Assembly: GCA_037441905.1 (NCBI GenBank)
Contig: JBBIRF010000003.1
Location: forward strand, 39,690 to 103,689
Direction of reading: 5' to 3'
Origin: Candidatus Aminicenantes bacterium
GTDB lineage: Bacteria; Acidobacteriota; Aminicenantia; Aminicenantales; CALLJL01
DNA: 64,000 nucleotides
Shown: positions 3,884-38,379 of the stretch, in pieces
Layout of the letters: every line of letters begins with the position of its first letter
Numbering within the stretch: position 1 is the first letter of the stretch
Made by a program: the position numbers and the translations under genes
Notes under the pieces: generated by a model
Told to the model about the DNA's origin: nothing
The model's input: only the letters and a program-made list of their open reading frames with translations
Database searches by the model: none

Positions 3884-3890
3884 GGGTAGA

Positions 3891-7635: not shown

Positions 7636-7766
7636 TTTACCACAGGAAAAACCTGATTTCTTTCTTTATTCAGATTCAGCCCTCTTTTAATCACTCCAGG
7701 GAAATTTTTTTTCCTGAATTTTCTTAGTGGCCGTTTGCTTTTTGAAGCAGTAGCTATTTAAGAATG

Positions 7767-7797: not shown

Positions 7798-7902
7798 ACC
7801 TCATAGGGCCGTCTGATTTTTCAGGCCAAACTCCCAGGGCGTTTTGTTTATTTATTTTCAGCTATTTAGCCTAAGAAAAGACAAATCAAAAACAGAGAAA
7901 AT

Positions 7903-7917
7903 TGGCACCTTTTTTGC
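7903..7917 (+). promoter_or_regulatory. Sigma-54 (-24/-12) promoter TGGCAC-N5-TTGC upstream of hdrC copy 1
   Basis: Exact TGGCAC cttttTTGC match with canonical spacing, ~100 nt upstream of hdrC start. Confidence 0.65.
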
Positions 7918-8017
7918 TTTCTTTTAAACCCGGTTAAGACCGCATTTTTCTGTTAAGAGCGTCGGGCGGTCAGTTTCAGTCACCCTTGACCCATCGGGGT
8001 CGAGGAGGAGGTTGTCG

Positions 8018-8647
8018 ATGGCGCTAAAAAATGTTCAGGAGGCGAAGGAAGCCTCTCGTTCTCAGGAACTGCTAAAAACCTTCTGGCTCCAGCTGAGAAA
8101 CATCCCCGGAGGCTTGAAAATCAGACGGTGTTTGCAGTGCGGCACATGCACCGGTTCTTGCCCGGTCAGCCATACGATGGACATTCCGCCCCGTGAAGTT
8201 ATTGCTCTGTTCAGGGCGGGAGAACTGGAGAAGATTCTGCAGTCAAGAACTATCTGGATTTGTGCTTCCTGTTATGCGTGTACCGTTCGCTGCCCTGTTG
8301 GCATCAAGGTAACTGACGTGCTTTATGCCCTCAAGCGGTTGGCCATGGAAAATGATTTATTCCCTCCTCGCTTCCCCGTTCATGCCCTTTCTCGTTCGTT
8401 TGTTTCTTTAGTTAACAAGTTTGGCCGAAGCTATGAGCCTGGGTTGTTGGTTCTTTTTTCCTTGAGGACCAACCCGTTTCGGCTGGTTGGGCTGCTTCCC
8501 CTGGCATGGAAATTGTGGCGGCACGGCCGCATCGGCCTTCTCCCGAAGAAAGTCAAACAGCGGAAAGAATTGGCCGCCATCCTCAAGGAAGCGCAGATAA
8601 TGGAAATGATTATTCCCTGGGAACCAGAGCCGGCGAAAGGTCATTGA
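8018..8647 (+). CDS. hdrC: Heterodisulfide reductase subunit C-like (2x[4Fe-4S])
   Basis: CLQCGTCTGSCP and CASCYACTVRCP motifs; start moved to ATG 8018 behind GAGGAGGAGG RBS. Confidence 0.8.
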   Translation: MALKNVQEAKEASRSQELLKTFWLQLRNIPGGLKIRRCLQCGTCTGSCPVSHTMDIPPREVIALFRAGELEKILQSRTIWICASCYACTVRCPVGIKVTDVLYALKRLAMENDLFPPRFPVHALSRSFVSLVNKFGRSYEPGLLVLFSLRTNPFRLVGLLPLAWKLWRHGRIGLLPKKVKQRKELAAILKEAQIMEMIIPWEPEPAKGH

Positions 8648-8664
8648 GCCGAGAGGAGGAGAAG

Positions 8665-9534
8665 ATGGAATATCTTTATTATCCCGGATGCAGCCTGGAG
8701 TCTTCCGCCAAGGCATACGACCAGGCAACGCGGTGGGTGTTCAAACGACTGGGACTTAACCTCCAGGAGTTGGAGGACTGGAATTGTTGTGGCGCCACGA
8801 TGTACATGTCCATCAAAGAAACCATTTCCTTGGCCTTTTCCGCCCGCAACCTCGCCTTGGCCGAGAAGGTTAACGGCGAAATCGTCGCGCCTTGTAGCTC
8901 ATGTTATACCATCCTTAACAAAACCAACCATGTTCTTCAGGAGAACTTTATCCTTCGGGCTAAGGTTAACCAGTCGCTGAAAAGGGCTGGTTTGGAATAC
9001 AGGGGGAAAGTCAGGGTTCGGCATCCGCTCGACGTCCTGGTGAACGACGTTGGCCTGGAGGCCATCAGGCAAAAAGCCGCTTTTTCCTTAGAAGGAATCC
9101 GCCTGGCGCCCTACTACGGCTGCCAGATTGTCCGGCCGGATGGCTTTTTCGACGACCGAGAAAACCCGATGACGATGGACCGGCTTTTTGCCTCGCTCGG
9201 AGCAACCATCGTTCCCTATCCAGTTAAGCTTCGTTGCTGCGGCGGCATGTTAATGACTACTTTTCCCGAGGTGGCTTTAAGGCTAAACCGGGAGATTATT
9301 GCCGCCGCCGTCGAGGCAAGGGCTGAGGCAATCGTTACCACCTGCCCTCTTTGCCAGATAAACCTTGACGCCTATCAGGATAAAATCAATCGCCTTTTCG
9401 GGACGGAATTCAAGATGCCCGTGTTATTTTTTACCCAGCTCCTGGCTCTGAGTTTGGGAGCTGACCGGTATGTGGCGGGGTGCAAAGAAAACATCGTTCC
9501 GGTACCGGAAAAATTGATTGGAGGGCAAAGATGA
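8665..9534 (+). CDS. hdrB: Heterodisulfide reductase subunit B-like (two CCG domains)
   Basis: NCCGATMY and CCGGMLM CCG-domain motifs; ATG at 8665 with GGAGGAG RBS (ORF-track start 8506 rejected). Confidence 0.8.
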   Translation: MEYLYYPGCSLESSAKAYDQATRWVFKRLGLNLQELEDWNCCGATMYMSIKETISLAFSARNLALAEKVNGEIVAPCSSCYTILNKTNHVLQENFILRAKVNQSLKRAGLEYRGKVRVRHPLDVLVNDVGLEAIRQKAAFSLEGIRLAPYYGCQIVRPDGFFDDRENPMTMDRLFASLGATIVPYPVKLRCCGGMLMTTFPEVALRLNREIIAAAVEARAEAIVTTCPLCQINLDAYQDKINRLFGTEFKMPVLFFTQLLALSLGADRYVAGCKENIVPVPEKLIGGQR

Positions 9535-10373
9535 GCGGCAACTCAGACCGACGCATAGGTGTTTATATCTGTCACTGCGGCTCCAACATCGCGGCCACCG
9601 TGGATGTTGTCGCCGTCAGGGATTTCGCTAGCAAGTTGCCTGAAGTGGTTATCGCCCGGGAGTATAAGTTCATGTGTTCTGACCCGGGCCAGGAAATGAT
9701 TCGCCAGGATATAAAAGAGCTGGGGCTTAACCGGGTCGTCGTGGCCAGCTGTTCGCCTTTGATGCACGAGCCGACTTTCCAAAAAACCTGCGAGAGCGCC
9801 GGGCTTAATCGGTATCTTTTCCAGATGGCCAACATCCGGGAACACTGCTCCTGGGTTCATAAGGACAGGCAAGCCGCCACCGAGAAGGCCAAGTACCTGG
9901 TGGCCGCGGCTGTTCGGCGAGTTTATTACCATGAGCCGCTTGAACCGATGCGAGTGAAGATTAACCCCGCCACCTTGATTGTCGGCGGCGGCGTGGCCGG
10001 GATTCAGGCTGCTTTGGAGATTTCGGAGGCTGGTCACGAGGTTTATCTCGTCGAAAAAGAACCCTCTATCGGCGGCCGGATGGCTGCCCTTGACAAAACC
10101 TTCCCGACTCTCGATTGTGCGGCTTGCATCCTGACTCCGAAGATGGTCAGCGTGGGGAGCCGGCCAAATATTCATCTCCTTAGCTACAGCGAGGTTGAAG
10201 AAGTTACTGGCTCCCTGGGCAAGTTCAAAGTCAAGATAAGACGCAAACCTCGGTATGTAAACGAGACTAAATGCACGGGTTGCGGGCTGTGCTATTCATC
10301 CTGCCCCGCGGTCAGAATTCCCACCCGCCGAGTGGTGAAGCTCGGCGACCGCGTCCTCAAAGAAATCGCCTGA
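9531..10373 (+). CDS. HdrA-like flavoprotein, N-terminal fragment only (Cys-cluster domain + FAD Rossmann + first ferredoxin CxxCxxCxxxCP), 280 aa
   Basis: GVYICHCGSNI...SCSP, LIVGGGVAGIQAALE...VYLVEKEPSIGGRMA, CTGCGLCYSSCP; ATGA overlap with hdrB stop; lacks CVGSRD/YCSRxCC half found in the downstream fusion. Confidence 0.7.
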   Translation: MSGNSDRRIGVYICHCGSNIAATVDVVAVRDFASKLPEVVIAREYKFMCSDPGQEMIRQDIKELGLNRVVVASCSPLMHEPTFQKTCESAGLNRYLFQMANIREHCSWVHKDRQAATEKAKYLVAAAVRRVYYHEPLEPMRVKINPATLIVGGGVAGIQAALEISEAGHEVYLVEKEPSIGGRMAALDKTFPTLDCAACILTPKMVSVGSRPNIHLLSYSEVEEVTGSLGKFKVKIRRKPRYVNETKCTGCGLCYSSCPAVRIPTRRVVKLGDRVLKEIA

Positions 10374-10410
10374 AGGCGCAGTAATGAGGAAAGAAGAAGG
10401 AGGCAAGAAG

Positions 10411-10920
10411 ATGGGAGACAAACTCGAGCTCGTCCAGAAAATCTTAGAAAAATGGCAGTTCCGGAAGGATTTCTTGATCGAAATTCTCCAGGACATCCAG
10501 GATGAGTTTCGCTATCTGCCTCATCACGCCCTGGCAGAGGTGGCCCGCTGGCTTGACCTCCCGCTGAACCAGGTTTATGAGGTGGCTACTTATTATAAGG
10601 CCTTCAGCCTCGAGCCCAAGGGAAAATTTCAAATAAGCATCTGTCAGGGGACGGCCTGCCATGTCCGGGGGGCGGCGACAGTTCGCGGTGCCTTCGAGCG
10701 AGAGCTGGGGATTAAACTCGGCGAAACCGACAAGAACCTGGAGTTCAGCCTGGAAGCGGTGCGTTGTTTGGGCTGCTGCGGGTTAGCGCCTGTTGTTACT
10801 GTAAACCAGGATATCTATGGGAAGATTGAGGCGAGCGAAGTACCCAAAATAATCGAGAAATACAGAAAAAGTAGCGGCCAGGTTAAAACCACGGCAACCC
10901 CCGCCAAAGGAGGCCGATGA
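10411..10920 (+). CDS. NuoE-like thioredoxin-fold [2Fe-2S] subunit
   Basis: CQGTACHVRG ... CLGCCGLAPV motifs; RBS GAAGGAGG before ATG 10411. Confidence 0.75.
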   Translation: MGDKLELVQKILEKWQFRKDFLIEILQDIQDEFRYLPHHALAEVARWLDLPLNQVYEVATYYKAFSLEPKGKFQISICQGTACHVRGAATVRGAFERELGIKLGETDKNLEFSLEAVRCLGCCGLAPVVTVNQDIYGKIEASEVPKIIEKYRKSSGQVKTTATPAKGGR

Positions 10921-12791
10921 TGAAAAAGCTGACGGTCGAAGACTTAAGCCGGATAAAGAAGAAGCGGCTCGAGGAGACGGCTCTGGGTGAAGCCGGGCCT
11001 TATCGAGCCCGAATCATCGTCCATCTCGGCACCTGCGGGTTAAGTGCCGGCGCCGGAGCTGTTCTGGAGGCTTTTGAAGCCCAGGTGGCCGCTCACCCTC
11101 AAGCCAAGGTTCATCTGCGCAAATGCGGCTGTGGCGGGTTCTGTGCCCGGGAGCCGATGGCCCAGGTTGAGGTTTTTGGGATAGAGCCGGTGATTTATAC
11201 CGACCTTAAGCCCAAGGATGCCAAACAGATTTTCGAAGAGCATGTGTTGAAAGGGAAGGTGGTCGAAGCTAAACGTCTACCCAAGGAGGAGCCTTTCTTT
11301 TCCCGCCAGCATTTCATCGTCCTCCGGAACCGAGGCCTGGTTGACCCGGAGAACATCGAGGACTACATCGCCCAGGATGGCTACACCGCCCTGGCCAAAG
11401 TATTGACCTCGATGTCTCCCGAGCAAGTAATCGCTGAAGTCAAAGCCTCGGGGTTGCGCGGCCGGGGCGGCGGAGGGTTCCCTACCGGCGTAAAGTGGGA
11501 GACATGCCGGCATGCGGGCGAGGAGAGAGGGGAGGAGCGATTTGTTATCTGCAATGCAGACGAAGGCGACCCCGGAGCTTACATGGACCGGAGCGTGATT
11601 GAATCCGACCCTCATGCGGTGATTGAAGGAATGATTATCGGCGCTTATGCTATCGGGGCCAAACAGGGCTATGTTTATATCCGCAAAGAGTACCCGATTG
11701 CTCTCGAGAAATTGAACCTGGCCTTAGACCAGGCGAGAGAATACGGTCTTCTTGGCGAGAAAATTCTCGGGACAGAATTTAGCTTTGATATCGAGGTCCA
11801 CCGGGGGGCGGGTGCTTTTGTTTGCGGCGAGTCAACGGCTTTGATGGCTTCGCTCGAGGGCCGAGCCGGCATTCCCCGCGCTAAATATATCCACACTGTG
11901 GAGTACGGCCTCTGGAATAAGCCGAGCTGCTTGAATAACGTCGAAACCTGGGCGAACGTCCCGGTGATAATAAACAAAGGAGCCTCATGGTTTACGCAGA
12001 TTGGGACAGGAGATGTAACCAATAACCCCTGGGGAGGGAGCAAGGGGACAAAAGTGTTTAGCTTGACGGGCAAAGTAAAGAACACTGGCCTGATCGAAGT
12101 GCCGATGGGGATTACCTTGCGGGAAATAATTTTTGACATCGGCGGCGGCATCCCCAACCAGAAGAAGTTCAAGACCGTCCAGACAGGAGGGCCGTCAGGC
12201 GGGTTCCTGCCCGAGAGCCTGCTCGACCTGCCGGTAGATTTTGACAGCTTGACAGAGGCCGGGTCGATGATGGGTTCGGGCGGGATGATTGTCGGCGACG
12301 AAGATACGTGCATGGTTGACATGGCCAAGTATTTCATCAATTTCCTGCTCGAGGAATCTTGCGGCAAATGTGTTCCCTGCCGGGAAGGGTTGCGCTCGAT
12401 GCATGCTATCCTCGAGCGGATTACCCATGGTCAGGGCAAAGAGAGTGACCTCGACGCTCTGATGGACCTTTCCAAGGCAATGATTCAATCTTCCCTCTGC
12501 GCCCTCGGCCAGAGTGCTCCCAACCCGGTTTTGACTTCCATTAAGTATTTCCGGGAAGAGTATGAAGCTCATATTCGGAACCACAAATGCCCGGCTGGAG
12601 TCTGTCCCGACCTTTACGAGATGACCATCATTCCCGAGCTATGCACCGGATGTATGGTCTGCGCTCGCTACTGCCCGACGAAAGCCATTGCGGGAGAGAA
12701 GCAAAAACCGCATCAAATTGACCGCAGCAAGTGTATCAAGTGCAATGTTTGCTATTCCCTCTGTAAGTTTAACGCCATCAAAAAAATTTAG
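10917..12791 (+). CDS. NuoF-like NADH-binding FMN/[4Fe-4S] subunit with N-terminal Trx-like Fdx domain and C-terminal 2x[4Fe-4S]
   Basis: GRGGGGFPTGVKWE FMN motif, ESCGKCVPCREG, C-terminal CTGCMVCARYCP / CIKCNVCYSLC. Confidence 0.8.
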   Translation: MMKKLTVEDLSRIKKKRLEETALGEAGPYRARIIVHLGTCGLSAGAGAVLEAFEAQVAAHPQAKVHLRKCGCGGFCAREPMAQVEVFGIEPVIYTDLKPKDAKQIFEEHVLKGKVVEAKRLPKEEPFFSRQHFIVLRNRGLVDPENIEDYIAQDGYTALAKVLTSMSPEQVIAEVKASGLRGRGGGGFPTGVKWETCRHAGEERGEERFVICNADEGDPGAYMDRSVIESDPHAVIEGMIIGAYAIGAKQGYVYIRKEYPIALEKLNLALDQAREYGLLGEKILGTEFSFDIEVHRGAGAFVCGESTALMASLEGRAGIPRAKYIHTVEYGLWNKPSCLNNVETWANVPVIINKGASWFTQIGTGDVTNNPWGGSKGTKVFSLTGKVKNTGLIEVPMGITLREIIFDIGGGIPNQKKFKTVQTGGPSGGFLPESLLDLPVDFDSLTEAGSMMGSGGMIVGDEDTCMVDMAKYFINFLLEESCGKCVPCREGLRSMHAILERITHGQGKESDLDALMDLSKAMIQSSLCALGQSAPNPVLTSIKYFREEYEAHIRNHKCPAGVCPDLYEMTIIPELCTGCMVCARYCPTKAIAGEKQKPHQIDRSKCIKCNVCYSLCKFNAIKKI

Positions 12792-12800
12792 GAGGCAGCC

Positions 12801-14576
12801 ATGGATGAGAAGAAAATCGTTACCCTCAAGATAGATGGTCATGAGGTGCAGGCGGAAAGAGGGACACCCATCATCAAACTGGCCTCGAAGCTTGGCATTT
12901 ATATTCCAACCCTTTGTCATAATGATTTCGTCGAGCCTTACGGAAGCTGCCGGGTTTGCTCGGTGGAGATGCGAAGAGGGAAGCGGAAAAGGCTGGTTAC
13001 TGCCTGTAATTACCCGGCCCAGCAGGGGGAGGAAATTTATACCGATACCGAGTGGGTGAGGGAAAACAGGCGGTTAATTCTTGAGCTGTTGCTGGCTCGT
13101 TGTCCGGAAGTGCCAGTCATTAAAGAAATGGCCGCCGCCTACGGAGTGACTGACACCCGGTTTGAAAAACTGAACTCTGATTGTATCAACTGCGGGCTAT
13201 GTGTCCGCGTATGTTCCGAGGTCGTCGGAGCCAATGCCATCGGGTGGGCAGGCCGGGGCGTCAACCGAGAAGTTACCACTCCTTTCGAGCTTAAACCCGA
13301 GGCTTGCATCGGCTGTGGCGCCTGTGCCGCGGTTTGTCCAACCGGACGAATCAGGGTTGAGCCTCTGTGGCAGACCAAAGAGGGTGAAGTTAGAGAATTT
13401 ACCCTCGGGCCGACAAGCGCCATTTATATTCCCACCTATCAGGCTGTTCCGAAGGTTCCGGTTATCGACCGCAATGCCTGTATCCACTTCAAGACAGGCG
13501 GATGTCAGGTGTGTGTGCGGGTTTGCGAACCGAAAGCGATTGACCATAACCAGGAGGAGAGGCTGGAAGAGGTCGAGGTTGGCCAGGTCTTAATCACCAC
13601 CGGTTACGACATCTTCGACCCCCGGGAGATGAAACAGTACGGCTACGGAATTTTAGACGACGTCTACAGCAGCCTGGAAATGGAATATCTGTTTAATTCG
13701 AGCGGCCCGACTTACGGCCGGGTTTTGATGAAAAACGGCCAGGAGCCGCGGTCAATCGGGATTATTCATTGTGTCGGGTCAAGAGATGTCAACCATCATC
13801 CCTACTGTTCCCGCATTTGCTGCATGTATGCCCTGAAATTTGCTCATCTGATTAAAGATAGGTCGACGGCCGATGTCTATCAGTTTTACATCGACATGAG
13901 AGCCTTCGGTAAAGGCTACGAAGAATTTTTCACCCGGATTCTGGACGAAGGAGTCAACGTCATCCGGGGACGGGTAGCGGAGGTAGTAAAGGCCGGGCCG
14001 GAAAAAGCGGCTGAAGGCAAGCTCTTGATTCGTTGCGAGGATACGCTCGTGCATCAGTTCCGAGAAATTCCCGTAGATATGGTAATCCTTTGCAGCGCGG
14101 TTGAACCAAGAAAAGACGCCGACCGGGTGCAGCGGCTTTTCACCCTCAGCCGGAGTCCAGACGGGTTCTTCCTGGAGAAACATCCGAAGCTCGACCCGAC
14201 GGCGACACCCACCGACGGCGTTTACATTGCCGGCTGTTGCCAGGGGCCGAAGGATATTCCTGATACCGTAGCTCAGGCGAGTTCAGCCGCCGCCCGGATT
14301 TTGGCTACGATTGCCAAAGGCGTGGTTGAAGTCGCCCCCATTGTCGCCCATATTGACCCCGAGGTTTGTGCCGGCTGCCGCCTTTGCCTTAACCTCTGCC
14401 CGTACGGGGCCATAGAATATCTTGAATCAGAAGGCGTCAGCCGCGTTAATGAAGCCTTGTGCAAAGGATGTGGCACCTGTGTTTCTGCCTGTCCGAGCGG
14501 GGCTTCTACCCAGCGGCATTTTCGTGACGAGCAGATTTTCGCCGAGATTGAAGGCATTCTTTTCCAGCCCCGTTGA
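12801..14576 (+). CDS. Fusion: NuoG-like N-terminus (2Fe-2S + 4Fe-4S) + HdrA C-terminal half (FAD domain part 2 + C-terminal ferredoxin)
   Basis: CHNDF..CRVCSVE 2Fe-2S, CINCGLCVRVC, CIGCGACAAVCP, then HdrA motifs HCVGSRD...YCSRICCMYALKFAHLIKD and C-terminal CAGCRLCLNLCP / CKGCGTCVSACP. Confidence 0.7.
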   Translation: MDEKKIVTLKIDGHEVQAERGTPIIKLASKLGIYIPTLCHNDFVEPYGSCRVCSVEMRRGKRKRLVTACNYPAQQGEEIYTDTEWVRENRRLILELLLARCPEVPVIKEMAAAYGVTDTRFEKLNSDCINCGLCVRVCSEVVGANAIGWAGRGVNREVTTPFELKPEACIGCGACAAVCPTGRIRVEPLWQTKEGEVREFTLGPTSAIYIPTYQAVPKVPVIDRNACIHFKTGGCQVCVRVCEPKAIDHNQEERLEEVEVGQVLITTGYDIFDPREMKQYGYGILDDVYSSLEMEYLFNSSGPTYGRVLMKNGQEPRSIGIIHCVGSRDVNHHPYCSRICCMYALKFAHLIKDRSTADVYQFYIDMRAFGKGYEEFFTRILDEGVNVIRGRVAEVVKAGPEKAAEGKLLIRCEDTLVHQFREIPVDMVILCSAVEPRKDADRVQRLFTLSRSPDGFFLEKHPKLDPTATPTDGVYIAGCCQGPKDIPDTVAQASSAAARILATIAKGVVEVAPIVAHIDPEVCAGCRLCLNLCPYGAIEYLESEGVSRVNEALCKGCGTCVSACPSGASTQRHFRDEQIFAEIEGILFQPR

Positions 14577-27132: not shown

Positions 27133-28596
27133 TTAATCTCTTTTTATCTGTTCCACCAACTCGCGACGGCTGTTGTAAATGTTGATGATTAGAGGCATGT
27201 CACCCGGAAGGGCATGAGTGCCGCATGCATGGCAGGGGTCATACGGACGAAAAGCCATCTCCGCTAAATTGAGTAGTCCGTCGGAAACCTTGCCTTCCTT
27301 GATAAAAGCCTTGGCTGCTTTTTCGATCGACATCGTAATGGCGGCTGAATTATTCATCGTGGCGACAATCAGGTTGGCTTCAGTCACAATGCCTTTTTCG
27401 TCGGTTTTATAATGGTGGAATAACGTTCCCCGGGGAGCTTCGACTACCCCCACTCCCTCGGTGGGCGTTTCTGTCGGCACCCGCCGGATGTCCGGGCTGG
27501 TAATTTCTTTGTCTTCCAGCAGGGCTACCATAGCCTCAGCTGCCTGGAGGGCTTCGATCAGACGAGCCCAGTGGAATGCCAGGGTGTTATGAGCCGGTTT
27601 TCCTCCGAGGACCTGGTACATCCTTTCGTATTCCTGTTGCGCTAAGGGAGTGGCCATGCCGTCAGCCGCGTTTAAGCGGGCGAGAGGCGCCACTCGGTAA
27701 ATACTGGTTTCTCTTCCCTCTACGAAGCCCTTCCAGCCAATTTTTTTCAGGTAAGGAAACTTAATGTAAGTCCAGGGCTCGACGTGTTCAGCCACGTGTT
27801 CGAGATAATCAGCGGCCTTAAACTTGGCGAACTCCTTGCCTTCGGGGTCGACCACCCGGATCAGGCCGTCATAAAAATTAACCCTGTTCTTCTCATCAAC
27901 CAGCCCCATGTAATAAGTGACGAGTTTATAAGCGTCGCCGACTACCAGGTCGACGTACTCTTTGTTTTTCAAGACGACGTCGTCGAAGATTTTCAGGGCA
28001 AACTTGGCGAATTCAACCGCATACCGGGCTGTCTCTAAGAATTTTAAGCGATGTTCCTCATCCAGCCCTTTGGAAACGCCGCCCGGAAGTCCGCAGACAG
28101 GGTGAATAACCTTGCCGCCGAGGTAGTTGATGATATCGCGACATTCCCGGCGGACCCTGATTACCTGGCCGCCGATTTCCAGCCCTACTTTACCCAGGAC
28201 ACCCAGAATATTTCTCTCCGCCGCCGGCGCCTGGGGGCCGACGACAAAATCAGGACCGCCCAGGAAAAAGAAATGAAGCGAATGGTCCTCCATCATAAAG
28301 GTGTTGTAAATTAACTCTCTTATCTTGCGGGCGGTTGGGGTTGGCTCGACATGAAAAACGGCGTCAACGCATTTTGTCGAGGCCATATGATGGGCGGTGG
28401 GGCAGACACCGCAGATGCGAGGGGTAATCCGGGGCATCTCTTCCACCGGACGGCCGACCGCGAACTGCTCAAAACCGCGCAGCTCCGGCACTTGAAGAAA
28501 AGCCCTTTCGACATCCCCGGCATCATTGAGGAAAATCTCTATCTTTCCGTGACCTTCAAGCCTGGTTATCGGGTCGATGGTTATTCGCTGACTCAT
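27133..28596 (-). CDS. mvhA: Mvh/Vhu-type (group 3c) [NiFe]-hydrogenase large subunit
   Basis: PRICGVCPTAHH and DPCHACGTHA motifs, 25-aa C-terminal extension. Confidence 0.85.
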   Translation of the reverse strand: MSQRITIDPITRLEGHGKIEIFLNDAGDVERAFLQVPELRGFEQFAVGRPVEEMPRITPRICGVCPTAHHMASTKCVDAVFHVEPTPTARKIRELIYNTFMMEDHSLHFFFLGGPDFVVGPQAPAAERNILGVLGKVGLEIGGQVIRVRRECRDIINYLGGKVIHPVCGLPGGVSKGLDEEHRLKFLETARYAVEFAKFALKIFDDVVLKNKEYVDLVVGDAYKLVTYYMGLVDEKNRVNFYDGLIRVVDPEGKEFAKFKAADYLEHVAEHVEPWTYIKFPYLKKIGWKGFVEGRETSIYRVAPLARLNAADGMATPLAQQEYERMYQVLGGKPAHNTLAFHWARLIEALQAAEAMVALLEDKEITSPDIRRVPTETPTEGVGVVEAPRGTLFHHYKTDEKGIVTEANLIVATMNNSAAITMSIEKAAKAFIKEGKVSDGLLNLAEMAFRPYDPCHACGTHALPGDMPLIINIYNSRRELVEQIKRD

Positions 28597-29567
28597 TTTA
28601 TTGCCTCCAGTTTCCTGCGGCCAAGAATTGACTTGGGCAGGCTAAAACGATAGAAGGTGCCGGCGGGGTCGGCGATAGTCTGGACAACCTTTTCTATTTC
28701 CTTTTCGTCCTTAAAATCGATAAGCGAAGCTAAGGCGGAAAGGAATTTGGCGCCCTGGTCGTAGACCTGGTCGGTTGGCCCGAAGCAACCCCGGCAGGGC
28801 ATGTTGGCCGTGATGCATCTTTCTTCGCAACCAGTTCTCGTAGCCGGTCCCATGCAGATAACCCCCTGGGCCAAAAAGCACTTTTCCGGGTCAAGAAGGA
28901 CTTCCCACGGCCGCTTAAACTCTTTAATCGTTAATTTCTCCGGCTTGGTCTTATTCCGGTCGCAATCGTCGCACAGAGATTTGTTGGGAGAAAGCACAGC
29001 TCCCTTCGGAGGGAGCTTACCCTCTAAAATAGCCCCGACAGCGTTGAGGATGAGGTGGCGGGGAGGAGCACAGCCGGGGAGATAATAGTCAACATCGATA
29101 ACCTGGTCGAGGGCCCTCACGGTGTCATAAAAAGCGGGCAGGGTTAATTCTTTGCCCTCGACAACGACTTTTTCCTGAGGAACAACGCCATCAGGGTTAA
29201 CCGTGGACGGGGTGGTGAAATAGGCCCGGCGGAAAATGGCCTCTTTGTTCCAGAAATTCGCCAGCCCGGGTATTCCGCCAAGATGCGAGCAGCTTCCGAA
29301 GGCAACGACGAGCTGCGATTTCCGGCGGAGCAGATGAACCATTTCTTCCTGTTCCGATAACCTGACCGACCCGTTAATAAAGCTAACCGCGATCGAGCCG
29401 TCAGCCATGGCCTCGACATCTTTTTTCTTAAAATCGAGGGCTACAGGCCAGAAAACGATGTCAACCGCTTCGACTACCTTAAGGATGTCTTCGGCCAGGT
29501 CGACAACCGCTTCCTCGCAGCCGCCGCAAGATGCACACCAGTAAAAAGCAACTTTGGGCTTACTCAT
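28593..29567 (-). CDS. mvhG: Mvh-type [NiFe]-hydrogenase small subunit
   Basis: [12 protein letters not shown]-terminus, multiple Cys cluster motifs ([21 protein letters not shown]). Confidence 0.8.
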
Positions 29568-29994
29568 GGGAACCTCCGTTGAACTTGAAGTTTAGCGGCC
29601 CGAGGCGCCGGACCTGTTCGGTAAACTCATTAACCACCTGCTGAAACCTGGCCCCTTCTGAGGCCGAAACCCATTCGAGCCTGAACCTTTCTTTTTCGAT
29701 GCCCAGCTGTTCGAGCAACCGCGAAAGAAGTTTATAACGGCGCAAGGCTTTATAATTACCTTCTTGATAATGGCAATCTCCAGGATGGCAGCCGGAAATC
29801 AGCACGCCGTCAGCCCCCTCGCGGAATGCCTTGAGGACAAACTGGGGGTCAACCCGGCCGCTGCACATAACCCGGATGATCCTTATGTTAGGGGCATAAG
29901 TCATCCTGGCCGTGCCTGCGAGGTCGGCCCCGGTATAAGAACACCAATTACAAAGGAACCCCACTAAGCGGGGTTCAAACCCAGCTTGACTCAT
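29560..29994 (-). CDS. mvhD: MvhD-like [2Fe-2S] electron-transfer subunit
   Basis: [18 protein letters not shown]...MCSGRVD...[11 protein letters not shown] motif pattern typical of MvhD. Confidence 0.8.
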
Positions 29995-30090
29995 TATTGC
30001 CTCCTCACCAGCTAAAATCGGATGACATGTTTTTAAAATAAAGCTTTACATTATATCTAAAACGGAAACAGGTTGCTACCTCCCGTGCGA

Positions 30091-31848
30091 TTATACAAGT
30101 AATAACCCTTCGATTTCGGCCATGATTTGCCGGTCGCGAAAGTGTTTCTGCTGAGCCGCACCCGACGGACAGGCGGCGACGCATGTCCCGCATCCTTTAC
30201 ACAGGGCGTCGTTTATGACGGATATTTCCTTTTCTCGGTCAAATGTTATGGCCGTAAATGGACAGAGGCCGACACAAATCTGACAGCCGGAGCAAAGGTT
30301 TTCGTCTATCTCCGCGGTTACTGGCTCAAGGCTGAAACTGGCTTTATCAGCCAGGGCTAAAGCTTCCGCCGCCGCCCCGCCTGCCTGAGCTACCGTATCG
30401 GGAATATCCCGGGGAGCCTGGCAACATCCCGCGAGAAAGATGCCGTCGGAGAAGGTCGAGACCGGAGCTAATTTCGGGTGTCTTTCTAAGAAGAAAGTAT
30501 CCTGACTGCAGGAAATGTTGAAGGTTTTGGCCAGCTGGTTATGGTCGACTGACGGCTCAAGCCCTGTTGCCAGAATCACCATATCGACGGGAATTCGCCG
30601 GACGACGCCCAGGAGCGTATCTTCCACCCGGATGATAAGCTTCCCTTCCTCTTCCTTGGTCACGGCCAGGTCGGTAATTTCCGAAACCCGACCGCGGATA
30701 AATTTTGTTCCTTCCTCGAGCAGACGATGATAAAACTCTTCATAGCCCTTACCGAAACAACGCATGTCGATATAAAAGTCATAAATGTCAGCTTCGGTTT
30801 TTTCTTTAATCAAATGGGCGAACTTGAGGGAGTACATGCAGCAGACCCGGGAGCAATATTCGTTGTAATTTTCATCTCTTGAGCCGACACAGTGAACTAT
30901 CCCGACTGATTTCGGTTCTTCTCCGCTAGCCAGCAAGATTTTGCCGCCGGTAGGACCAGAAGCATTCACCAGATGCTCAAACTCCAGGGCTGTAATCACG
31001 TTCGGCAACCTGCCGTAGCCGTAGGCCGGGATGCGGCGGGCGTCAAACGGCTTAAAACCGGTGGCCAGGATTATCGACCCGACTTCGACCTCCACCTCCT
31101 CTTCTTTCATTTCATGGTTAACGGCCTGTCGGTCGCAAACCTTGACGCAGAGCTGGCATTTGCCCGTCTTAAAATGGATGCAGGCGGATTCATCGATAAA
31201 AGGAACCATCGGAACAGCTTGGCGGATGGGAACCCGGATGGCGGTCGATGGCCCAAGATATAGCTCGGAATGGATAACCTGGCGGCCGTACTTATCTTCA
31301 TAGGTGATTGCTCCTGTCGGGCAGAAATGGGCGCAGGCGGTACAGCCGATGCAAGCTTCTGAAGGTTCGCCAAAAGGAGGCATTACTTTCCTCTCTGTAC
31401 CGCGGTCGATAAAACTAATCGCACAGGCGCCCACCACTTGTTCGCAAGCGCGGACGCACAGACCGCAGAGGATGCATTTTTCATTTGGGTCCTTTATCGG
31501 GAAACGCGGCTTATCAATGCCCATTTCCCTGGCAAGCCTCTGGACAGGTTCAGCGGCCGGCGCCCGGGCTAGAAGCATTTCCACGTTAAGCCGCCGGCTT
31601 CTGAGGACCCGCGGGGAGGCGGTTTCAACCTCCATCCCGTCTTGAACCTTATTGTTACATGACGTAATAAGGTCTTTCCGGCCCCGCACGCTTACTTCAA
31701 CCAAACAGACGCGGCAGGCGGCATAAGGCTCGATTAATGGATGATAGCAAAGAGTCGGGATGGAAATATCTAATTTCTTGGCCGCCTGGAGGATGGTTGT
31801 CCCCTCTTCTACCTGAATTTTCTTGCCATCAATCGTAACGGTAACCAT
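30091..31848 (-). CDS. Fusion: NuoG-like N-terminus + HdrA C-terminal half (paralog of 12801-14576)
   Basis: CYHPLIEPYAACRVC 2Fe-2S, CILCGLCVRAC, CIGCTACAHFCP, HCVGSRD...YCSRVCCMYSLKFAHLIKE, C-terminal CSGCQICVGLCP / CKGCGTCVAACP. Confidence 0.7.
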   Translation of the reverse strand: MVTVTIDGKKIQVEEGTTILQAAKKLDISIPTLCYHPLIEPYAACRVCLVEVSVRGRKDLITSCNNKVQDGMEVETASPRVLRSRRLNVEMLLARAPAAEPVQRLAREMGIDKPRFPIKDPNEKCILCGLCVRACEQVVGACAISFIDRGTERKVMPPFGEPSEACIGCTACAHFCPTGAITYEDKYGRQVIHSELYLGPSTAIRVPIRQAVPMVPFIDESACIHFKTGKCQLCVKVCDRQAVNHEMKEEEVEVEVGSIILATGFKPFDARRIPAYGYGRLPNVITALEFEHLVNASGPTGGKILLASGEEPKSVGIVHCVGSRDENYNEYCSRVCCMYSLKFAHLIKEKTEADIYDFYIDMRCFGKGYEEFYHRLLEEGTKFIRGRVSEITDLAVTKEEEGKLIIRVEDTLLGVVRRIPVDMVILATGLEPSVDHNQLAKTFNISCSQDTFFLERHPKLAPVSTFSDGIFLAGCCQAPRDIPDTVAQAGGAAAEALALADKASFSLEPVTAEIDENLCSGCQICVGLCPFTAITFDREKEISVINDALCKGCGTCVAACPSGAAQQKHFRDRQIMAEIEGLLLV

Positions 31849-31859
31849 TTCTTACCTCC

Positions 31860-33686
31860 TCACTCAACTCTTACGGCGCCAAAATTGCATACGTCAAAAC
31901 AGACGCCGCACTTAATACACTTGGCCTGGTCTATCTTATGAGATTCGCCCTTAGCCCCGGTTATGGCTTCAGAGGCGCAGTTCCGCCGGCAGACGTCGCA
32001 GCCATGACCCTTTTCCAGACAGATTTGCGGGTCAATGGTGTAAACGTTAAGTTGCCGGCAGACATGAGCCGGGCATTTTTTATCACGGATATGGGTGATA
32101 TATTCATCGCGGAAGTAGCGAAGCGTCGTGAGAACCGGGTTAGGAGCGGTTTTTCCTAAACCGCAGAGCGACGCTTCTTTGACGGTCTGGGCGAGTTCTT
32201 CGAGCAAAACCAGGTCTTCTTCTGTCCCTTTGCCTTCAGTGATTCGGGTGAGGATATCGAGCATGGCCTTTGTTCCCTCCCGGCAAGGAGTGCATTTGCC
32301 GCAGCTTTCATCCTGGGTGAAAGACAGGAAGTAACGAGCGACATCCACCATGCAGGTATCTTCGTCCATGACGACCATGCCGCCCGAGCCCATCATGCTT
32401 CCCGCCTCAGTCAAGCTTTCATAATCAATCGGGAGGTCGATCTTTTCCGCCGGGATGCATCCTCCGGAAGGGCCGCCAGTTTGGACAGCTTTGAATTTTT
32501 TCCCGCCAGGAATACCGCCGCCGATGTCATAAATAATTTCGCGCAGGGTTATTCCCATCGGGACCTCAACCAGGCCGGTGTTGTTAATTTTGCCGACAAG
32601 AGAAAAAACCTTGGTACCCTTTGAGGTCGGTGTCCCGATCGAGGCGAACCATTTTCCTCCCCGGTCGATGATAACAGGGACATTAGCCCAGGTTTCAACG
32701 TTATTGATGCAGGTAGGTTTACCCCAGAGTCCCTTTTCCGCCGGATAAGGCGGCCTCGGTCTTGGTTCGCCCAAACGGCCCTCGATTGAGGCCAGCAGGG
32801 CGGTTTCCTCGCCGCAAACAAAGGCGCCGGCTCCCCGGACAACTCTGATGTCGAAGTCAAAACCGGTCCCTAAGATATCATGACCGAGCAGGCCAAGACT
32901 GCGGGCCCGGTCGAGTGCGATATAGATTCTTTTTACGGCCAGGGGATATTCATTCCGGACATAAATGAAGCCCTGGGTCGCCCCGATGGCCTTGGCCCCG
33001 ATGAGCATTCCCTCGATAACCGAATGCGGGTCGGCTTCGAGGATGCTTCGGTCCATGAAAGCGCCCGGGTCGCCTTCGTCGCCGTTGCAGACGAGATATT
33101 TTTCTCCGTTGGGCGAAGGTGAATTCCGGACGAGTTGCCACTTTAGGCCCGTGGGAAAACCGGCACCGCCCCGGCCCCGCAGCCCGGAAACGGTGATTTC
33201 CTGGATTATTTCTTCCGGCGTCATCTGGGTCAGAGCCTTAACCAGGGCTTTATACCCGTCACGGGCTATGTAATCTTCGATTTTTTCCGGGTCGATGAGG
33301 CCGCGGTTGCGCAGGGCGACGAGCACCTGTTTCTTGAAAAAGTTGATTTCGCTCAAAACCGGCACGGGTGTTTTTTCTTCGGGCGGCTGGTACATGAACT
33401 TCTTCACCGGCCGGCCTTTAAGGAGATGTTCTTCCACCAGCAGCGGCACATCTTTCACGCTCAGGGTTTGGTAAAAGATGTTGCCGGGCTGGACGACAAG
33501 CAGCGGGCCTCGTTCACAGAACCCGTTGCAACCGGTAGTCACCACTTTAACTTCGTTTTCCAGCCCCTGGCGCTTAATTTCTTTTTCCAGAGCTTCTTTA
33601 ATTTCGAAGGCGTGGTTGGAGACACACCCCGTCCCGGCGCAGACCATTAAGTGGGTCCGGTATAGCTTTTCTTTTGCTTCCGCCAT
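31860..33686 (-). CDS. NuoF-like NADH-binding FMN/[4Fe-4S] subunit with N-terminal Trx-like Fdx domain
   Basis: GRGGAGFPTGLKWQ, ESCGKCTPCREG, C-terminal Cys clusters. Confidence 0.8.
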   Translation of the reverse strand: MAEAKEKLYRTHLMVCAGTGCVSNHAFEIKEALEKEIKRQGLENEVKVVTTGCNGFCERGPLLVVQPGNIFYQTLSVKDVPLLVEEHLLKGRPVKKFMYQPPEEKTPVPVLSEINFFKKQVLVALRNRGLIDPEKIEDYIARDGYKALVKALTQMTPEEIIQEITVSGLRGRGGAGFPTGLKWQLVRNSPSPNGEKYLVCNGDEGDPGAFMDRSILEADPHSVIEGMLIGAKAIGATQGFIYVRNEYPLAVKRIYIALDRARSLGLLGHDILGTGFDFDIRVVRGAGAFVCGEETALLASIEGRLGEPRPRPPYPAEKGLWGKPTCINNVETWANVPVIIDRGGKWFASIGTPTSKGTKVFSLVGKINNTGLVEVPMGITLREIIYDIGGGIPGGKKFKAVQTGGPSGGCIPAEKIDLPIDYESLTEAGSMMGSGGMVVMDEDTCMVDVARYFLSFTQDESCGKCTPCREGTKAMLDILTRITEGKGTEEDLVLLEELAQTVKEASLCGLGKTAPNPVLTTLRYFRDEYITHIRDKKCPAHVCRQLNVYTIDPQICLEKGHGCDVCRRNCASEAITGAKGESHKIDQAKCIKCGVCFDVCNFGAVRVE

Positions 33687-33699
33687 TTTTCACTCCTTC

Positions 33700-34089
33700 C
33701 TACAGGTCGGTCTTTTCGCTGCCAATACCCAGGGCATAGGCAGTGACGATTTGTCCCCCGAGGACATGCTTCTCGAAGATCTCCTGGGCCTTTTTCTCAG
33801 TCAGGTCGACGTACTTAACCGGAGCCTGGCCGGCCAGCTCGACCGTTGCCATCGGCTCGCGGCTGCAGAGGCCGGCACATCCGGATGTCGTCAGAAGAAC
33901 GTCCGTCGTTCCTCGCTTTTCCACTTCCCGGAGAAAAGCATTCATGATATTTCTGGCGCCGGCCGCAATCCCGCAAGTGCCCATATGGACAATGATTTTG
34001 GCCTTGAATTGGCCCTGCTCGCGGATAAAAATCGACTTTCTGGCCTCTTGCCTTATTTTTTCGAGGTCTTCAAGCGTGAGCTTTGGCAT
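33700..34089 (-). CDS. Stand-alone thioredoxin-like [2Fe-2S] ferredoxin (homolog of the N-terminal domain of the NuoF-like protein)
   Basis: IIVHMGTCGIAAGA...SGCAGLCSREP, aligns to residues 1-120 of 10917-12791 product. Confidence 0.6.
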   Translation of the reverse strand: MPKLTLEDLEKIRQEARKSIFIREQGQFKAKIIVHMGTCGIAAGARNIMNAFLREVEKRGTTDVLLTTSGCAGLCSREPMATVELAGQAPVKYVDLTEKKAQEIFEKHVLGGQIVTAYALGIGSEKTDL

Positions 34090-34101
34090 GGCTTCCTCTC
34101 C

Positions 34102-34557
34102 TCATTTCTTGTATTTTTTGATGATGCCCGGGACCTTCGTTTGAGTAACTTTTCCGTGGACTTCCTCGCCAACCATAACTACGGGCGCAAGGCCACAGCA
34201 CCCCAGGCAACGGACAGCATCCAGGCTGAAAAGCCGGTCTTCGCTCGTCTCGCCCGCCTTTATGCCGAGTTCCCGCTCGAATTTCTCCAGAACCAGCTGG
34301 GCTCCGCGGACATGACAGGCGGTCCCGAGACACACATGGATGGGATGTTTGCCCTTAGGTTTGAGGCTAAAAGCCCGGAAAAAAGTAGCTAAGCTAAGAA
34401 TGCGACTAAGGGGGACATCCATCTCCCGGGAAATTTGCTCCAGGGCTTCCCGCGGCAGGTAGGAATATTCTTCCTGCAGGTCCTGGAGCATGGCGATGAG
34501 GGAACTCTCATCGCGAGCGTATTTTTCCAGGATTTCAGAGACTTTGGCTTCGACCAT
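34102..34557 (-). CDS. NuoE-like [2Fe-2S] subunit
   Basis: CLGTACHVRGA...CLGCCGLAPV. Confidence 0.75.
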   Translation of the reverse strand: MVEAKVSEILEKYARDESSLIAMLQDLQEEYSYLPREALEQISREMDVPLSRILSLATFFRAFSLKPKGKHPIHVCLGTACHVRGAQLVLEKFERELGIKAGETSEDRLFSLDAVRCLGCCGLAPVVMVGEEVHGKVTQTKVPGIIKKYKK

Positions 34558-35101
34558 GTTCCCTCCTTAAAAAAGATAACCTATGGTCAATATAATTCCT
34601 GATGGCGTTTAAAACCTCAGGATGATTGAGTGCTATTCCGGGGTAAGTTTCTTTAAACTGCCGCGTGTTGAACTCAAATTCTGCCCCGTCGCGGCGATGA
34701 TAATAGACCCATTCTATTTCCGGATGCCCGGCTATCAAGGTAACCAGGGTTAAGGCCAAGTCACCCATCGGCTTGAGGTCGATGTGGCTCAAACGAAACG
34801 ACGCCCGTACTTTTGTTCCTTTTTGCGGGGCTGAAGTCAGCGTCAGGTCGCCGCCCGCCGCTCGACAGGCTTCTTGAAGGAAGGGCAAACCGAGCCCGAT
34901 TCTTCTTGTCTGGCGCGTGGAATAAAAAGGGTCGAGGGCGCGACGGCATTCTTCTTCGCTCATCCCTCGCCCGTTATCCTCCACCTCGAGAAGAAGAAGG
35001 TCGGCAGCGGCGTCTTCGATAATAGTAATCTTTATGCGTGAGGCGCCTGCATTCACCGAATTCTCGGCGATGTCCAGAAGGTGAAGCGATAAGTCTTCCA
35101 T
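34535..35101 (-). CDS. Histidine-kinase-like ATPase (HATPase_c only; start likely ATG 35101 MEDLSL...)
   Basis: LLEVEDNGRGM and GLGLPF G1/G2-box-like motifs, no HisKA/receiver. Confidence 0.55.
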   Translation of the reverse strand: MEDLSLHLLDIAENSVNAGASRIKITIIEDAAADLLLLEVEDNGRGMSEEECRRALDPFYSTRQTRRIGLGLPFLQEACRAAGGDLTLTSAPQKGTKVRASFRLSHIDLKPMGDLALTLVTLIAGHPEIEWVYYHRRDGAEFEFNTRQFKETYPGIALNHPEVLNAIRNYIDHRLSFLRREHGRSQSL

Positions 35102-35108
35102 GGCTATC

Positions 35109-35840
35109 TCAATTGAGAATCCTTCTGCCTTCTTGTTGCCGCAGGCTGAGAACGATTTCTTCAAAGGTTAAGTCAGTCATCAAGAAAGAAGTGGTGGCGG
35201 CGCCGATTTCTTTGAGGTCATGGGCGTCGGAAAAAGTTACCAGGGGATATGGTTCAGGGAATTTTTTTCTGGCCTCCGCCAGCGATAGACGGGATGAGAT
35301 TTCCAGCCCGTCCAGGGCGAGAGAAGCAGGAATAAACCCAAGCTGGCTGATGAGCGAAAACGCTTCCCGGTCGACATGGGAGGCTATGGCCAGACCCCCG
35401 AGCTGATGGATGAGATTGACTGTTTCTTCCAGGCTGAGGGTCGTCGCGCCGATCAGCAGGCGGTCGTTGAAGCGGAGGACTTCGCCTTCCTCGTTCACCA
35501 CTACCTGGAGTCCGTAAAGTTCCGGGTTGTTTTCTCCCGGAAGATGTTCGTAGATTTTCTCCTGGAGCTCGAAAGCGGCCTCAACCCGGCCAAAAAGGGC
35601 TAACAGGTGCACTTCTTCCTTCGTCGTCACTTCGATTCCCGGGATCACCGGAAGCGAGAATTTCTCGCCCGCCGCGACCAGGGCTGGAATGTTTTCAGCC
35701 GAGTTGTGGTCGCAGATGCCGATTATTTCGATATCCTTATCCCTGGCCATTTTAACAATGCCCCGGGGGGACAGGTTCAGCTCGCCGCAGGGCGAAAGGC
35801 AAGTGTGGATGTGAAGGTCAGTTTTCACCGCTCGCAGCAT
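35109..35840 (-). CDS. PHP-domain (polymerase/histidinol phosphatase) metal-dependent phosphoesterase
   Basis: DLHIHTCLSPCG...ICDHNS PHP His/Asp motifs. Confidence 0.65.
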   Translation of the reverse strand: MLRAVKTDLHIHTCLSPCGELNLSPRGIVKMARDKDIEIIGICDHNSAENIPALVAAGEKFSLPVIPGIEVTTKEEVHLLALFGRVEAAFELQEKIYEHLPGENNPELYGLQVVVNEEGEVLRFNDRLLIGATTLSLEETVNLIHQLGGLAIASHVDREAFSLISQLGFIPASLALDGLEISSRLSLAEARKKFPEPYPLVTFSDAHDLKEIGAATTSFLMTDLTFEEIVLSLRQQEGRRILN

Positions 35841-35843
35841 CTC

Positions 35844-38378: not shown

Positions 38379-38379
38379 T

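Follow-up and report, generated by a model that had tools for sequence, protein, structure and literature searches.

A bacterial HdrA divided between two genes around an inserted BfuCBA-type module, and the Hdr-Bfu complex that it may form

In a 64,000-nucleotide stretch of a Candidatus Aminicenantes contig (JBBIRF010000003.1, positions 39,690 to 103,689; the whole stretch is called the window below), six open reading frames (ORFs) on the plus strand between 8018 and 14576 encode proteins of the heterodisulfide reductase (Hdr) type, and the flavoprotein subunit of that system, HdrA, is divided between two of them. A first-pass annotation of the window had read the gene order as hdrC, hdrB, a 280-residue N-terminal piece of HdrA, a nuoE-like gene, a nuoF-like gene and a fusion of a NuoG-like N-terminus to the second half of HdrA. 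Pfam, NCBIfam and the coordinates all agree with this order. The spacers between the six genes are 20, -4, 10, -4 and 9 nucleotides long; the genes carry GGAGG-type ribosome-binding sites or overlap at ATGA, and they are translationally coupled. The ATG at 8018 follows GGAGGAGG, so the start previously assigned to hdrC is right. The second gene that encodes a part of HdrA extends from 12801 to 14576, and two complete genes plus the 5' third of this second gene, which encodes a BfuA-like domain, lie between the two HdrA pieces (Table 1).

The HdrC-like protein matches the NCBIfam model for CoB-CoM heterodisulfide reductase subunit C with an E value of 3e-23, which is below the equivalog cut-off of that model, and it has two CxxCxxCxxxC motifs at residues 38 and 82 (CLQCGTCTGSC and CASCYACTVRC). 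In the HdrB-like protein both C-x(n)-CCG-x(n)-CxxC patterns, of the CCG domains that hold the non-cubane clusters in HdrB, are intact (residues 8-79 and 152-229).

The 280-residue protein (HdrA-N) and the 591-residue fusion divide the HdrA sequence between them. In the NCBIfam HdrA2 profile, positions 1-265 are matched by residues 8-271 of HdrA-N (E 4.6e-115) and positions 262-640 by residues 199-586 of the fusion (HdrA-C; E 1.1e-130). Against solved HdrA, the same two proteins align with residues 11-266 (E 2e-107) and 245-656 (E 3e-121) of 8rvu_a. HdrA-N is thus a piece of HdrA, with the N-terminal Cys domain, first Rossmann segment and first ferredoxin motif that had been ascribed to it, and the fusion is, as had been proposed, the second half of HdrA placed behind a NuoG-like N-terminus (residues 1-187, of BfuA/NuoG/HoxU type).

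The alignment to solved HdrA also locates the cut. HdrA-N ends about 20 residues past the first Cys motif of the inserted ferredoxin domain, C248-x2-C-x2-C-x3-C-P (motif 1, C248-C258). Beyond its BfuA-like domain the fusion resumes HdrA at EFTLGPTSAIYIPTYQAVPKVPVID, which is followed by C227-x7-C-x2-C-x3-C (motif 2, C227-C242). By this comparison the cut separates the two Cys motifs of the inserted ferredoxin domain from each other, which is where the first-pass annotation had put the split. In unsplit bacterial HdrA proteins (fetched loci L054-L056 and L039) both motifs and the same linker are on one chain.

The FAD (flavin adenine dinucleotide) fold is divided as well. Its GxGxxG motif is in HdrA-N; the HCVGSRD...YCSRICC cluster site and the second FAD motif, TDGVYIAG...GPKDIP (TDGVYIAGCCQGPKDIP), are in the fusion, the C-terminal region of which keeps the FAD-domain residues. 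In addition to motif 2 and the rest of the thioredoxin-reductase-like FAD domain, the fusion has C324/C336/C340/C341 and the C-terminal 2x[4Fe-4S] motifs, at residues 523 and 554. All four HdrA domains (N-terminal cluster, FAD, inserted ferredoxin and C-terminal ferredoxin) are present only as the sum of the two proteins. Judged by their motifs the two pieces are complementary, with each cluster and FAD motif present once, and the two polypeptides would indeed be needed together to rebuild HdrA, as had been suggested. Three ferredoxin-type motifs lie in the first 250 residues of the fusion and one in HdrA-N. These four motifs are predicted to hold four clusters, two in the BfuA ferredoxin domain and two in the inserted ferredoxin domain, which needs completion in trans.

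The proteins encoded within the cut had been taken for an NADH-oxidizing NuoEF unit. Two features define BfuB proteins, an additional [2Fe-2S] domain at the N-terminus and a 2x[4Fe-4S] domain at the C-terminus, and the 624-residue protein has both; its Pfam domains run in the order N-terminal [2Fe-2S], FMN (flavin mononucleotide)/NADH site, SLBB, [4Fe-4S] and C-terminal 2x[4Fe-4S]. Its best solved relative is the A. mobile NiFe-HydB (7t2r_B, E 1.7e-217, residues 29-624), and further full-length relatives are FeFe-HydB (7q4v_B, 8a6t_B and 7p5h_B), WorB (9mqx_B) and NfnB (9n5u_B), all of them subunits of bifurcating enzymes that have been characterized by experiment. NuoF of Complex I matches only residues 146-556, at about 1e-107. 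The reading as a Complex-I-type NuoEF was therefore rejected, since the BfuB/HydB matches are full-length and the NuoF match is partial. Together with the thioredoxin-like protein, in which the cysteines are Cys 87, 92, 128 and 131/132, it makes up, by sequence, the core that electron-bifurcating enzymes build from BfuC and BfuB (HydC and HydB).

Residues 1-187 of the fusion match the N-termini of [FeFe]-hydrogenase A6, HoxU and NuoG in NCBIfam. The closest solved match (E 3.8e-39) is 9mqx_A, the 247-residue WorA, which is a short BfuA and belongs to the tungsten aldehyde oxidoreductase Bfu enzyme (PMC12318220). The domain has one [2Fe-2S] site and two [4Fe-4S] motifs; relatives invariably have Cys 39, 50, 53 and 69 as well as the motifs at 128 and 169, and no motif for a His-ligated cluster was seen in it. 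These assignments identify the inserted unit as a predicted BfuCBA module, as Schut et al. 2022 (PMC9304861) use the term, rather than merely the head of an NADH dehydrogenase. Part of the first-pass claim stands, in that the HdrA part and the module would be hard-wired by the covalent BfuA::HdrA link. The other part does not: the core is BfuC/BfuB and not of the Complex I type, and the module would consequently handle ferredoxin besides NADH.

Table 1. Coordinates of the features discussed, as positions in the window
Feature	Coordinates	Strand	Basis or remark
Candidate sigma-54 promoter, TGGCAC-N5-TTGC	7903..7917	+	Exact consensus match, about 100 nt upstream of hdrC; pattern match only
hdrC-like, 209 aa from ATG 8018	8018..8647	+	ORF opens at TTG 8012; Pfam Fer4_8/Fer4_17
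hdrB-like, 288 aa	8668..9534	+	Pfam, two CCG domains, E 7e-29; NCBIfam HdrB, E 4e-60
hdrA N-terminal fragment, 280 aa	9531..10373	+	N-terminal Cys domain, first FAD Rossmann segment, first Cys motif of inserted ferredoxin domain
bfuC (nuoE/hoxE/hydC-like), thioredoxin-like [2Fe-2S], 178 aa	10384..10920	+	Pfam 2Fe-2S_thioredx, E 5e-50; NCBIfam HoxE/NuoE
bfuB (nuoF/hydB-like), 624 aa	10917..12791	+	Pfam architecture
BfuA-like (NuoG/HoxU-like) N-terminal domain of fusion, residues 1-190	12801..13370	+	Pfam Fer2_4 and Fer4
hdrA C-terminal part of 591-aa fusion, residues ~191-591	13371..14576	+	HdrA2 profile, PDB 8rvu_a
Fuller paralogous copy	27136..40666	-	tblastn of the six proteins and of L083/L004 accessory proteins

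The divided HdrA is not peculiar to this operon. A scan of one genome per species gave at least 594 confirmed relatives among the 600 matches listed, and 80 loci were fetched. The best 120 of 8000 scored hits (clusters) for the fusion are 585-602 residues long, with at least 97% query coverage and 59-100% identity, and their sources include Aminicenantes, Ignavibacteriae, Bacteroidota, Neomarinimicrobiota and Sumerlaeia. HdrA-N homologues are abundant as stand-alone proteins of 276-297 residues (best 120 clusters of 8000 scored hits), the closest among the matches listed being from 'Candidatus Aminicenantales bacterium' (94%). Mapped by tblastn on the fetched loci, the order hdrC-hdrB-hdrA(N)-bfuC-bfuB-bfuA::hdrA(C), and with it the same fission and fusion, is found in at least 38 HdrA-C copies under about 13 phylum labels: Zixibacteria, Acidobacteriota (Bryobacterales, Terriglobia and Aminicenantes), Ignavibacteria, GN15, Armatimonadota, Calditrichota, Desulfobacterota, Planctomycetota, Chloroflexota, Fidelibacterota, Verrucomicrobiota, a Clostridia-labelled metagenome-assembled genome (MAG) and Thermoplasmata archaea. 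Because this gene order is kept in dozens of unrelated genomes, the split arrangement is, on comparative grounds, far beyond chance.

HdrA-N and the fusion co-occur wherever the flanking DNA sufficed, except in L028 (Fidelibacterota). Of the BfuA domain, the L028 fusion (10025-11485) covers just the second half, and the 10 kb upstream of it contain no HdrA-N. In L034 (9150-11772) bfuC and bfuB are absent between the two pieces, and HdrA-N directly precedes the BfuA::HdrA-C fusion. HdrA-N and BfuC form a single ORF in two lineages, L020 (a Planctomycetaceae MAG, 2923-4599) and L016 (a Desulfobacterales MAG, 5191-6543), so that in these lineages the Bfu module is covalently linked to HdrA at either end. 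L016 also has a BfuB homologue of 1037 residues with an added C-terminal GltD-like domain (6540-9653).

Between the window and L081, in which the fusion is 89% identical, nonsynonymous divergence (dN) is 0.075-0.20 across the six genes. The ratio to synonymous divergence (dN/dS) is available only for HdrA-N, where it is 0.026, the other five genes being saturated at synonymous sites. All six genes are, on this comparison, under purifying selection.

In most split loci mvhD, the genes for the small and large subunits of a [NiFe]-hydrogenase and hycI lie directly downstream of the fusion gene. Many also have a block between hdrA(N) and bfuC that encodes DRTGG proteins, a HydS-like sensor of the [FeFe]-hydrogenase type, a PHP phosphoesterase, a HATPase and a small protein that corresponds to BfuB's N-terminal domain. 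The unsplit relatives L054-L056 show the unmodified Mvh-Hdr arrangement of bacteria, in the order hdrC, hdrB, hdrA, mvhD, small subunit, large subunit and hycI. The family is therefore most aptly regarded as an Mvh-Hdr operon into whose hdrA bfuCBA has been inserted. A rough neighbor-joining tree of the HdrA-C parts, which has no support values, interleaves split, unsplit and GltD-insert forms and therefore permits no inference on the number of times that the split arose.

The window itself carries a second, fuller copy (Table 1). Its genes run hdrC, hdrB, hdrA-N, DRTGG, HydS-like sensor, DRTGG, PHP, HATPase, then bfuC, a 127-residue small subunit, bfuB, bfuA::hdrA-C, mvhD and the small and large [NiFe]-hydrogenase subunits, of which mvhD and the hydrogenase genes occupy 27136-29982. 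Pfam confirmed the FlpD/MvhD protein, the fusion architecture and the N-terminal fragment in this copy, and protein identity to the first copy is 41-62% by tblastn. HydS-like sensor, DRTGG, PHP and HATPase genes are known to accompany HydABC operons. The clade of the first copy (the window, L001, L081 and L082) has neither mvhDGA nor the regulatory block, and in it the small subunit is fused to BfuB. By gene content the first copy is thus a hydrogenase-less paralogue of a widespread Mvh-Hdr-Bfu cluster.

Downstream of 14576 lie convergent hypA, hypB and hycI-like genes, and beyond the hyp genes the members of this clade have a kinase, response regulators and a separate four-subunit hydrogenase of the group-3b type. 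The large subunit of this [NiFe]-hydrogenase (18993-20732, minus strand) is fused to a HycI-like protease domain. In the window its gene has an in-frame TAG at 19947-19949 and an in-frame TGA at 19374-19376, where the L081 orthologue, a single ORF of 579 residues, has Tyr and Gly; the gene is either a pseudogene or affected by sequence error. Only two exact matches to the sigma-54 consensus occur in the window, the one listed in Table 1 and one at 18601-18615 (minus strand), and both are intergenic, upstream of hdrC and of a response-regulator gene, respectively. Between the two Hdr-Bfu copies are an NtrC-type sigma-54 activator (23703-25070, by synteny with L081) and a Cache/HAMP sensor kinase (25039-27045). 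Divergent from hdrC is a gene for a 966-residue NAD-specific glutamate dehydrogenase (4735-7635, minus strand), with the same neighborhood in L081 and L082. This enzyme is a possible source of NADH for the complex proposed below; the neighborhood is seen only in this one clade.

What might such an assembly do? FmdF and MvhB, which are polyferredoxins, bind to the inserted ferredoxin domain in solved Hdr complexes; the low-potential electron reaches this domain via the C-terminal shuttle cluster, and the high-potential electron passes through the cluster beside the FAD to HdrC and HdrB (PMC12350162). In Bfu enzymes the BfuBC core turns over NAD(H) and ferredoxin, and BfuA is the electron carrier that connects this core with a third-substrate module (PMC9304861, PMC12318220). 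The anatomy of the operon says that the low-potential port of HdrA would be hard-wired to a Bfu core. A GltD/NfnB-like module at the same site in L027 suggests that this position in HdrA is a recurrent docking point for pyridine-nucleotide modules.

We think it probable that the six proteins form one soluble Hdr-Bfu complex that acts as an NADH- and ferredoxin-linked disulfide reductase. The layout of the genes, the cofactor motifs, the family to which each part belongs, the conservation and the co-fusions are shown by the sequences; the assembly of the complex, its electron direction and stoichiometry, the bifurcating role of one or both flavin sites and its thiol/disulfide substrate are what we infer from the gene products. 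HdrA would be rebuilt from two polypeptides, HdrA-N providing the N-terminal cluster domain, the first half of the FAD fold and motif 1, and the fusion providing motif 2, the remaining FAD fold and the C-terminal ferredoxin domain. Since the fusion starts with a short BfuA domain, the Fe-S chain of BfuABC would be covalently attached to HdrA at the inserted ferredoxin domain. HdrC and HdrB would form the usual high-potential branch, in which a disulfide is reduced at the two CCG-bound clusters. BfuBC would merge the electrons of NADH and reduced ferredoxin, and the merged electrons would pass first BfuA, then the rebuilt ferredoxin domain and the HdrA flavin, before they reach HdrCB. In the common form, represented by the second copy, an Mvh [NiFe]-hydrogenase would feed HdrA through MvhD, and a complex of this kind would connect four couples (H2, disulfide, NAD and ferredoxin). 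The only substrate sites encoded by the first copy are those of BfuB, for NADH and ferredoxin, and of HdrB, for a disulfide, and this is why an NADH-/ferredoxin-linked disulfide reductase is its most likely role.

A broader proposal may also be made, and we put it forward only tentatively: that the FAD site of HdrA and the FMN/Fe-S site of Bfu, two of the four bifurcating devices that evolved independently, have been joined, by insertion of the Bfu operon into the HdrA gene at the domain regarded as its low-potential exit, into a two-stage bifurcating or confurcating complex that links up to four couples and is widespread in uncultured anaerobes, with the first copy being a new NADH-/ferredoxin-dependent disulfide reductase that acts on a bacterial thiol.

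Several observations weigh against the disulfide reductase that we favor. An AlphaFold2 model of the fusion alone, built on a 12-sequence alignment, was poor (predicted local distance difference test score, pLDDT, 51.5; predicted template modeling score, pTM, 0.34). No candidate for the thiol/disulfide substrate was found. The use of both NADH and reduced ferredoxin on an ordinary disulfide would waste energy, so the stoichiometry may differ from the one implied here. The C-terminal ferredoxin arm of HdrA, which in solved enzymes binds MvhD, is still present in the first copy, and the HdrA flavin may receive electrons from a mid-potential donor that is encoded at another locus, such as MvhADG of the second copy. 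Finally, some HydABC enzymes of the NuoF type do not bifurcate, as cited for S. wolfei in PMC5861303.

There is a different possibility, in which the first copy uses a hydrogenase in trans (MvhADG of the second copy, or another donor that docks on the C-terminal arm) and works as an H2-dependent Mvh-Hdr-Bfu enzyme. The intact C-terminal ferredoxin domain, the mvhD and [NiFe]-hydrogenase genes that follow the fusion gene in most split loci and are also carried by the window in its second copy, and the hypA, hypB and hycI-like genes convergent to the operon are all in keeping with it. We nevertheless regard it as unlikely. The operon lacks mvhD in four of four clade genomes (the window, L001, L081 and L082), the limited identity between the two copies means that an exchange of subunits is not assured, and the neighboring hydrogenase is a self-contained enzyme of four subunits whose large-subunit gene has two in-frame stops in the window.

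Electrons might also run the other way. The HdrA flavin would then split the electrons of a mid-potential donor, the high-potential electron would reduce a disulfide, and the low-potential electron would leave through the rebuilt ferredoxin domain into BfuA and be split again by BfuBC between NAD+ and ferredoxin, a second split that would yield reduced ferredoxin of unusually low potential. In favor of this scheme, the Bfu module is attached at the low-potential exit that the literature anticipates, Bfu enzymes do take electrons from BfuA to reduce NAD and ferredoxin (PMC9304861, PMC12318220), and two coupled bifurcating modules have been proposed for Bam-Bfu (Schut et al., PMC9304861). But the first copy encodes no mid-potential donor. 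For the first copy we hold it to be quite unlikely. Both this scheme and the use of a hydrogenase in trans fit the second copy, which contains Mvh, better than the first.

That two independent enzymes merely share an operon (HdrCB with HdrA-N, and BfuCB with the fusion), so that HdrA is never reconstituted, seems very improbable to us. The pieces are separate polypeptides, and AlphaFold was uninformative on their pairing. Yet HdrA-N has only the first Rossmann segment of a FAD fold, the rest of which is in the fusion, and each piece carries one of the two Cys motifs of a two-cluster ferredoxin domain. The pieces also keep company across genomes, L028 apart, and the HdrA-N::BfuC ORFs of two lineages tie HdrA-N physically to the Bfu side. 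As for an artefact or decay (a frameshift, a misassembly, or a pseudogenized hdrA beside an unrelated NuoEFG-like operon), the in-frame stops in another gene of the window attest that errors or decay do occur in this record, but we give this reading practically no credence and the comparative data exclude it: two complete genes and the BfuA-coding stretch separate pieces that each have their own start and ribosome-binding site, the same layout recurs in dozens of genomes of unrelated phyla and in the second copy, all of the best 120 clusters listed in each search (of 8000 scored hits) are stand-alone N-pieces or full-length fusions, respectively, and all cofactor motifs are conserved in genes under purifying selection.

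Flavin-based electron bifurcation is the way in which strict anaerobes obtain low-potential electrons, and four enzyme lineages that perform it are known. In the family described here a gene fusion unites two of these four lineages, the point of union being HdrA's inserted ferredoxin domain, and the carriers are mostly uncultured sediment and subsurface lineages. The usual annotation, 'MvhADG/HdrABC' or 'heterodisulfide reductase subunit A', misses the Bfu part and its link to NAD(H), which would mislead metabolic reconstructions of the H2, NADH and ferredoxin balance. The family offers a handle on what HdrBC reduces in bacteria that have neither CoM-S-S-CoB nor DsrC, and on the coupling of two bifurcating sites in series, which to our knowledge has so far been proposed only for class II benzoyl-CoA reductase. 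Two paralogues in one genome, one with and one without a hydrogenase, provide a natural comparison.

Among known systems, the MvhAGD-HdrABC complex that methanogens have (PDB 5ODC, 8RVU) and its unsplit homologues in bacteria share with these proteins the HdrB with two CCG domains, the HdrC with two clusters, a HdrA matched over every domain and, in the common split form and the second copy of the window, the same operon frame. They differ in that here HdrA is on two chains with bfuC, bfuB and the BfuA domain in the cut, in that no mvhD, mvhG or mvhA follows the first copy, whereas the second copy has them, and in that the host is an Aminicenantales-like bacterium and not a methanogen. FlxABCD-HdrABC, found in Desulfovibrio and many other anaerobes, consists of an FNR-type FlxA, FlxBC, an MvhD-like FlxD and an intact HdrA. 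It resembles the proposed complex in its NADH-linked reduction of a disulfide (DsrC) and of ferredoxin through HdrABC, as has been proposed for it, but its NADH module is unrelated, its HdrA is not split, and Pfam found no FlxA-D domain in the six operon proteins. QmoABC has two HdrA-like subunits and a membrane-bound QmoC with a cytochrome b domain. The operon in the window encodes HdrB and no membrane QmoC; its 209-residue HdrC scores higher on HdrC models than on QmoC, the QmoC model being matched only over its ferredoxin part (13-96 of 360). The distinction from FlxABCD-HdrABC, Qmo and MvhADG-HdrABC drawn in the first-pass annotation is thus borne out.

Gene clusters that may be related have been noticed before under other descriptions. 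Heterodisulfide reductase genes upstream of a group 3c hydrogenase, with a function called unknown, were recorded in Caldithrix abyssi, Thermoanaerobaculum aquaticum and Ca. Acetothermum (PMC5317091), and a comparable hydrogenase in an Ignavibacteriae MAG was annotated simply as MvhADG/HdrABC (PMC7509429). In the literature searched we found no description of a split HdrA or of an Hdr-Bfu enzyme, in line with the first-pass annotation, which had not recognized a characterized complex; an earlier description elsewhere is possible. The family is large and, as far as we found, uncharacterized, and in it two known bifurcating systems meet at one definite place in the structure.

The nearest relatives of the HdrA-C part of the first copy, in the rough tree, are proteins of the HdrL type, and several loci that encode them have an exact sigma-54 site upstream of their clusters. 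These are single HdrA chains of about 1140 residues with a GltD/NfnB-like Fer4_20 plus Pyr_redox_2 module between the N- and C-pieces (L027, 7631-11065), and they occur in L026, L027, L031-L036, L044 and L072. Their [NiFe]-hydrogenase genes lie upstream of hdrC in L026, L027, L031, L032, L036 and L072 and downstream in L035 and L044. HdrL, a 'heterodisulfide reductase/glutamate synthase fusion', was first named in Desulfobacterium autotrophicum (PMC2702500). As read in the fetched loci, the 1140-residue proteins carry a pyridine-nucleotide module at the same site in HdrA as the family described here. They do so with a GltD/NfnB-like domain in a single chain, whereas here a three-subunit Bfu module sits in a broken chain, and by Pfam the Fer4_20 plus Pyr_redox_2 module is absent from the 8018-14576 operon.

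With the Bfu family (NiFe-HydABCSL, 7T2R; FeFe-HydABC, 7Q4V, 8A6T and 7P5H; NfnABC, 9N5U; WorABCSL, 9MQX) the operon shares a full-length BfuB and a BfuC, with WorA in particular a short BfuA that has one [2Fe-2S] and two [4Fe-4S] sites, and, in the second copy, the HydS-like sensor, DRTGG, PHP and HATPase genes. The third-substrate module differs, being the C-terminal two-thirds of HdrA fused to BfuA and not a hydrogenase, formate dehydrogenase, WOR or GltD, and no Hdr-type Bfu clade is named in the main text or in one supplementary file of PMC9304861. Bam-Bfu, the class II benzoyl-CoA reductase BamBCDEFGHI for which serial coupling of two bifurcating modules has been proposed (PMC9304861), is likewise a complex that contains both an HdrA-type flavoprotein (BamE) and homologues of BfuABC (BamGHI). 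Bam has the tungsten active site of BamB and no HdrBC pair of the type seen here, and Pfam found no AOR-family or BamB-like gene among the six of the operon. As a precedent for an enzyme with two bifurcating modules, Bam-Bfu comes closest.

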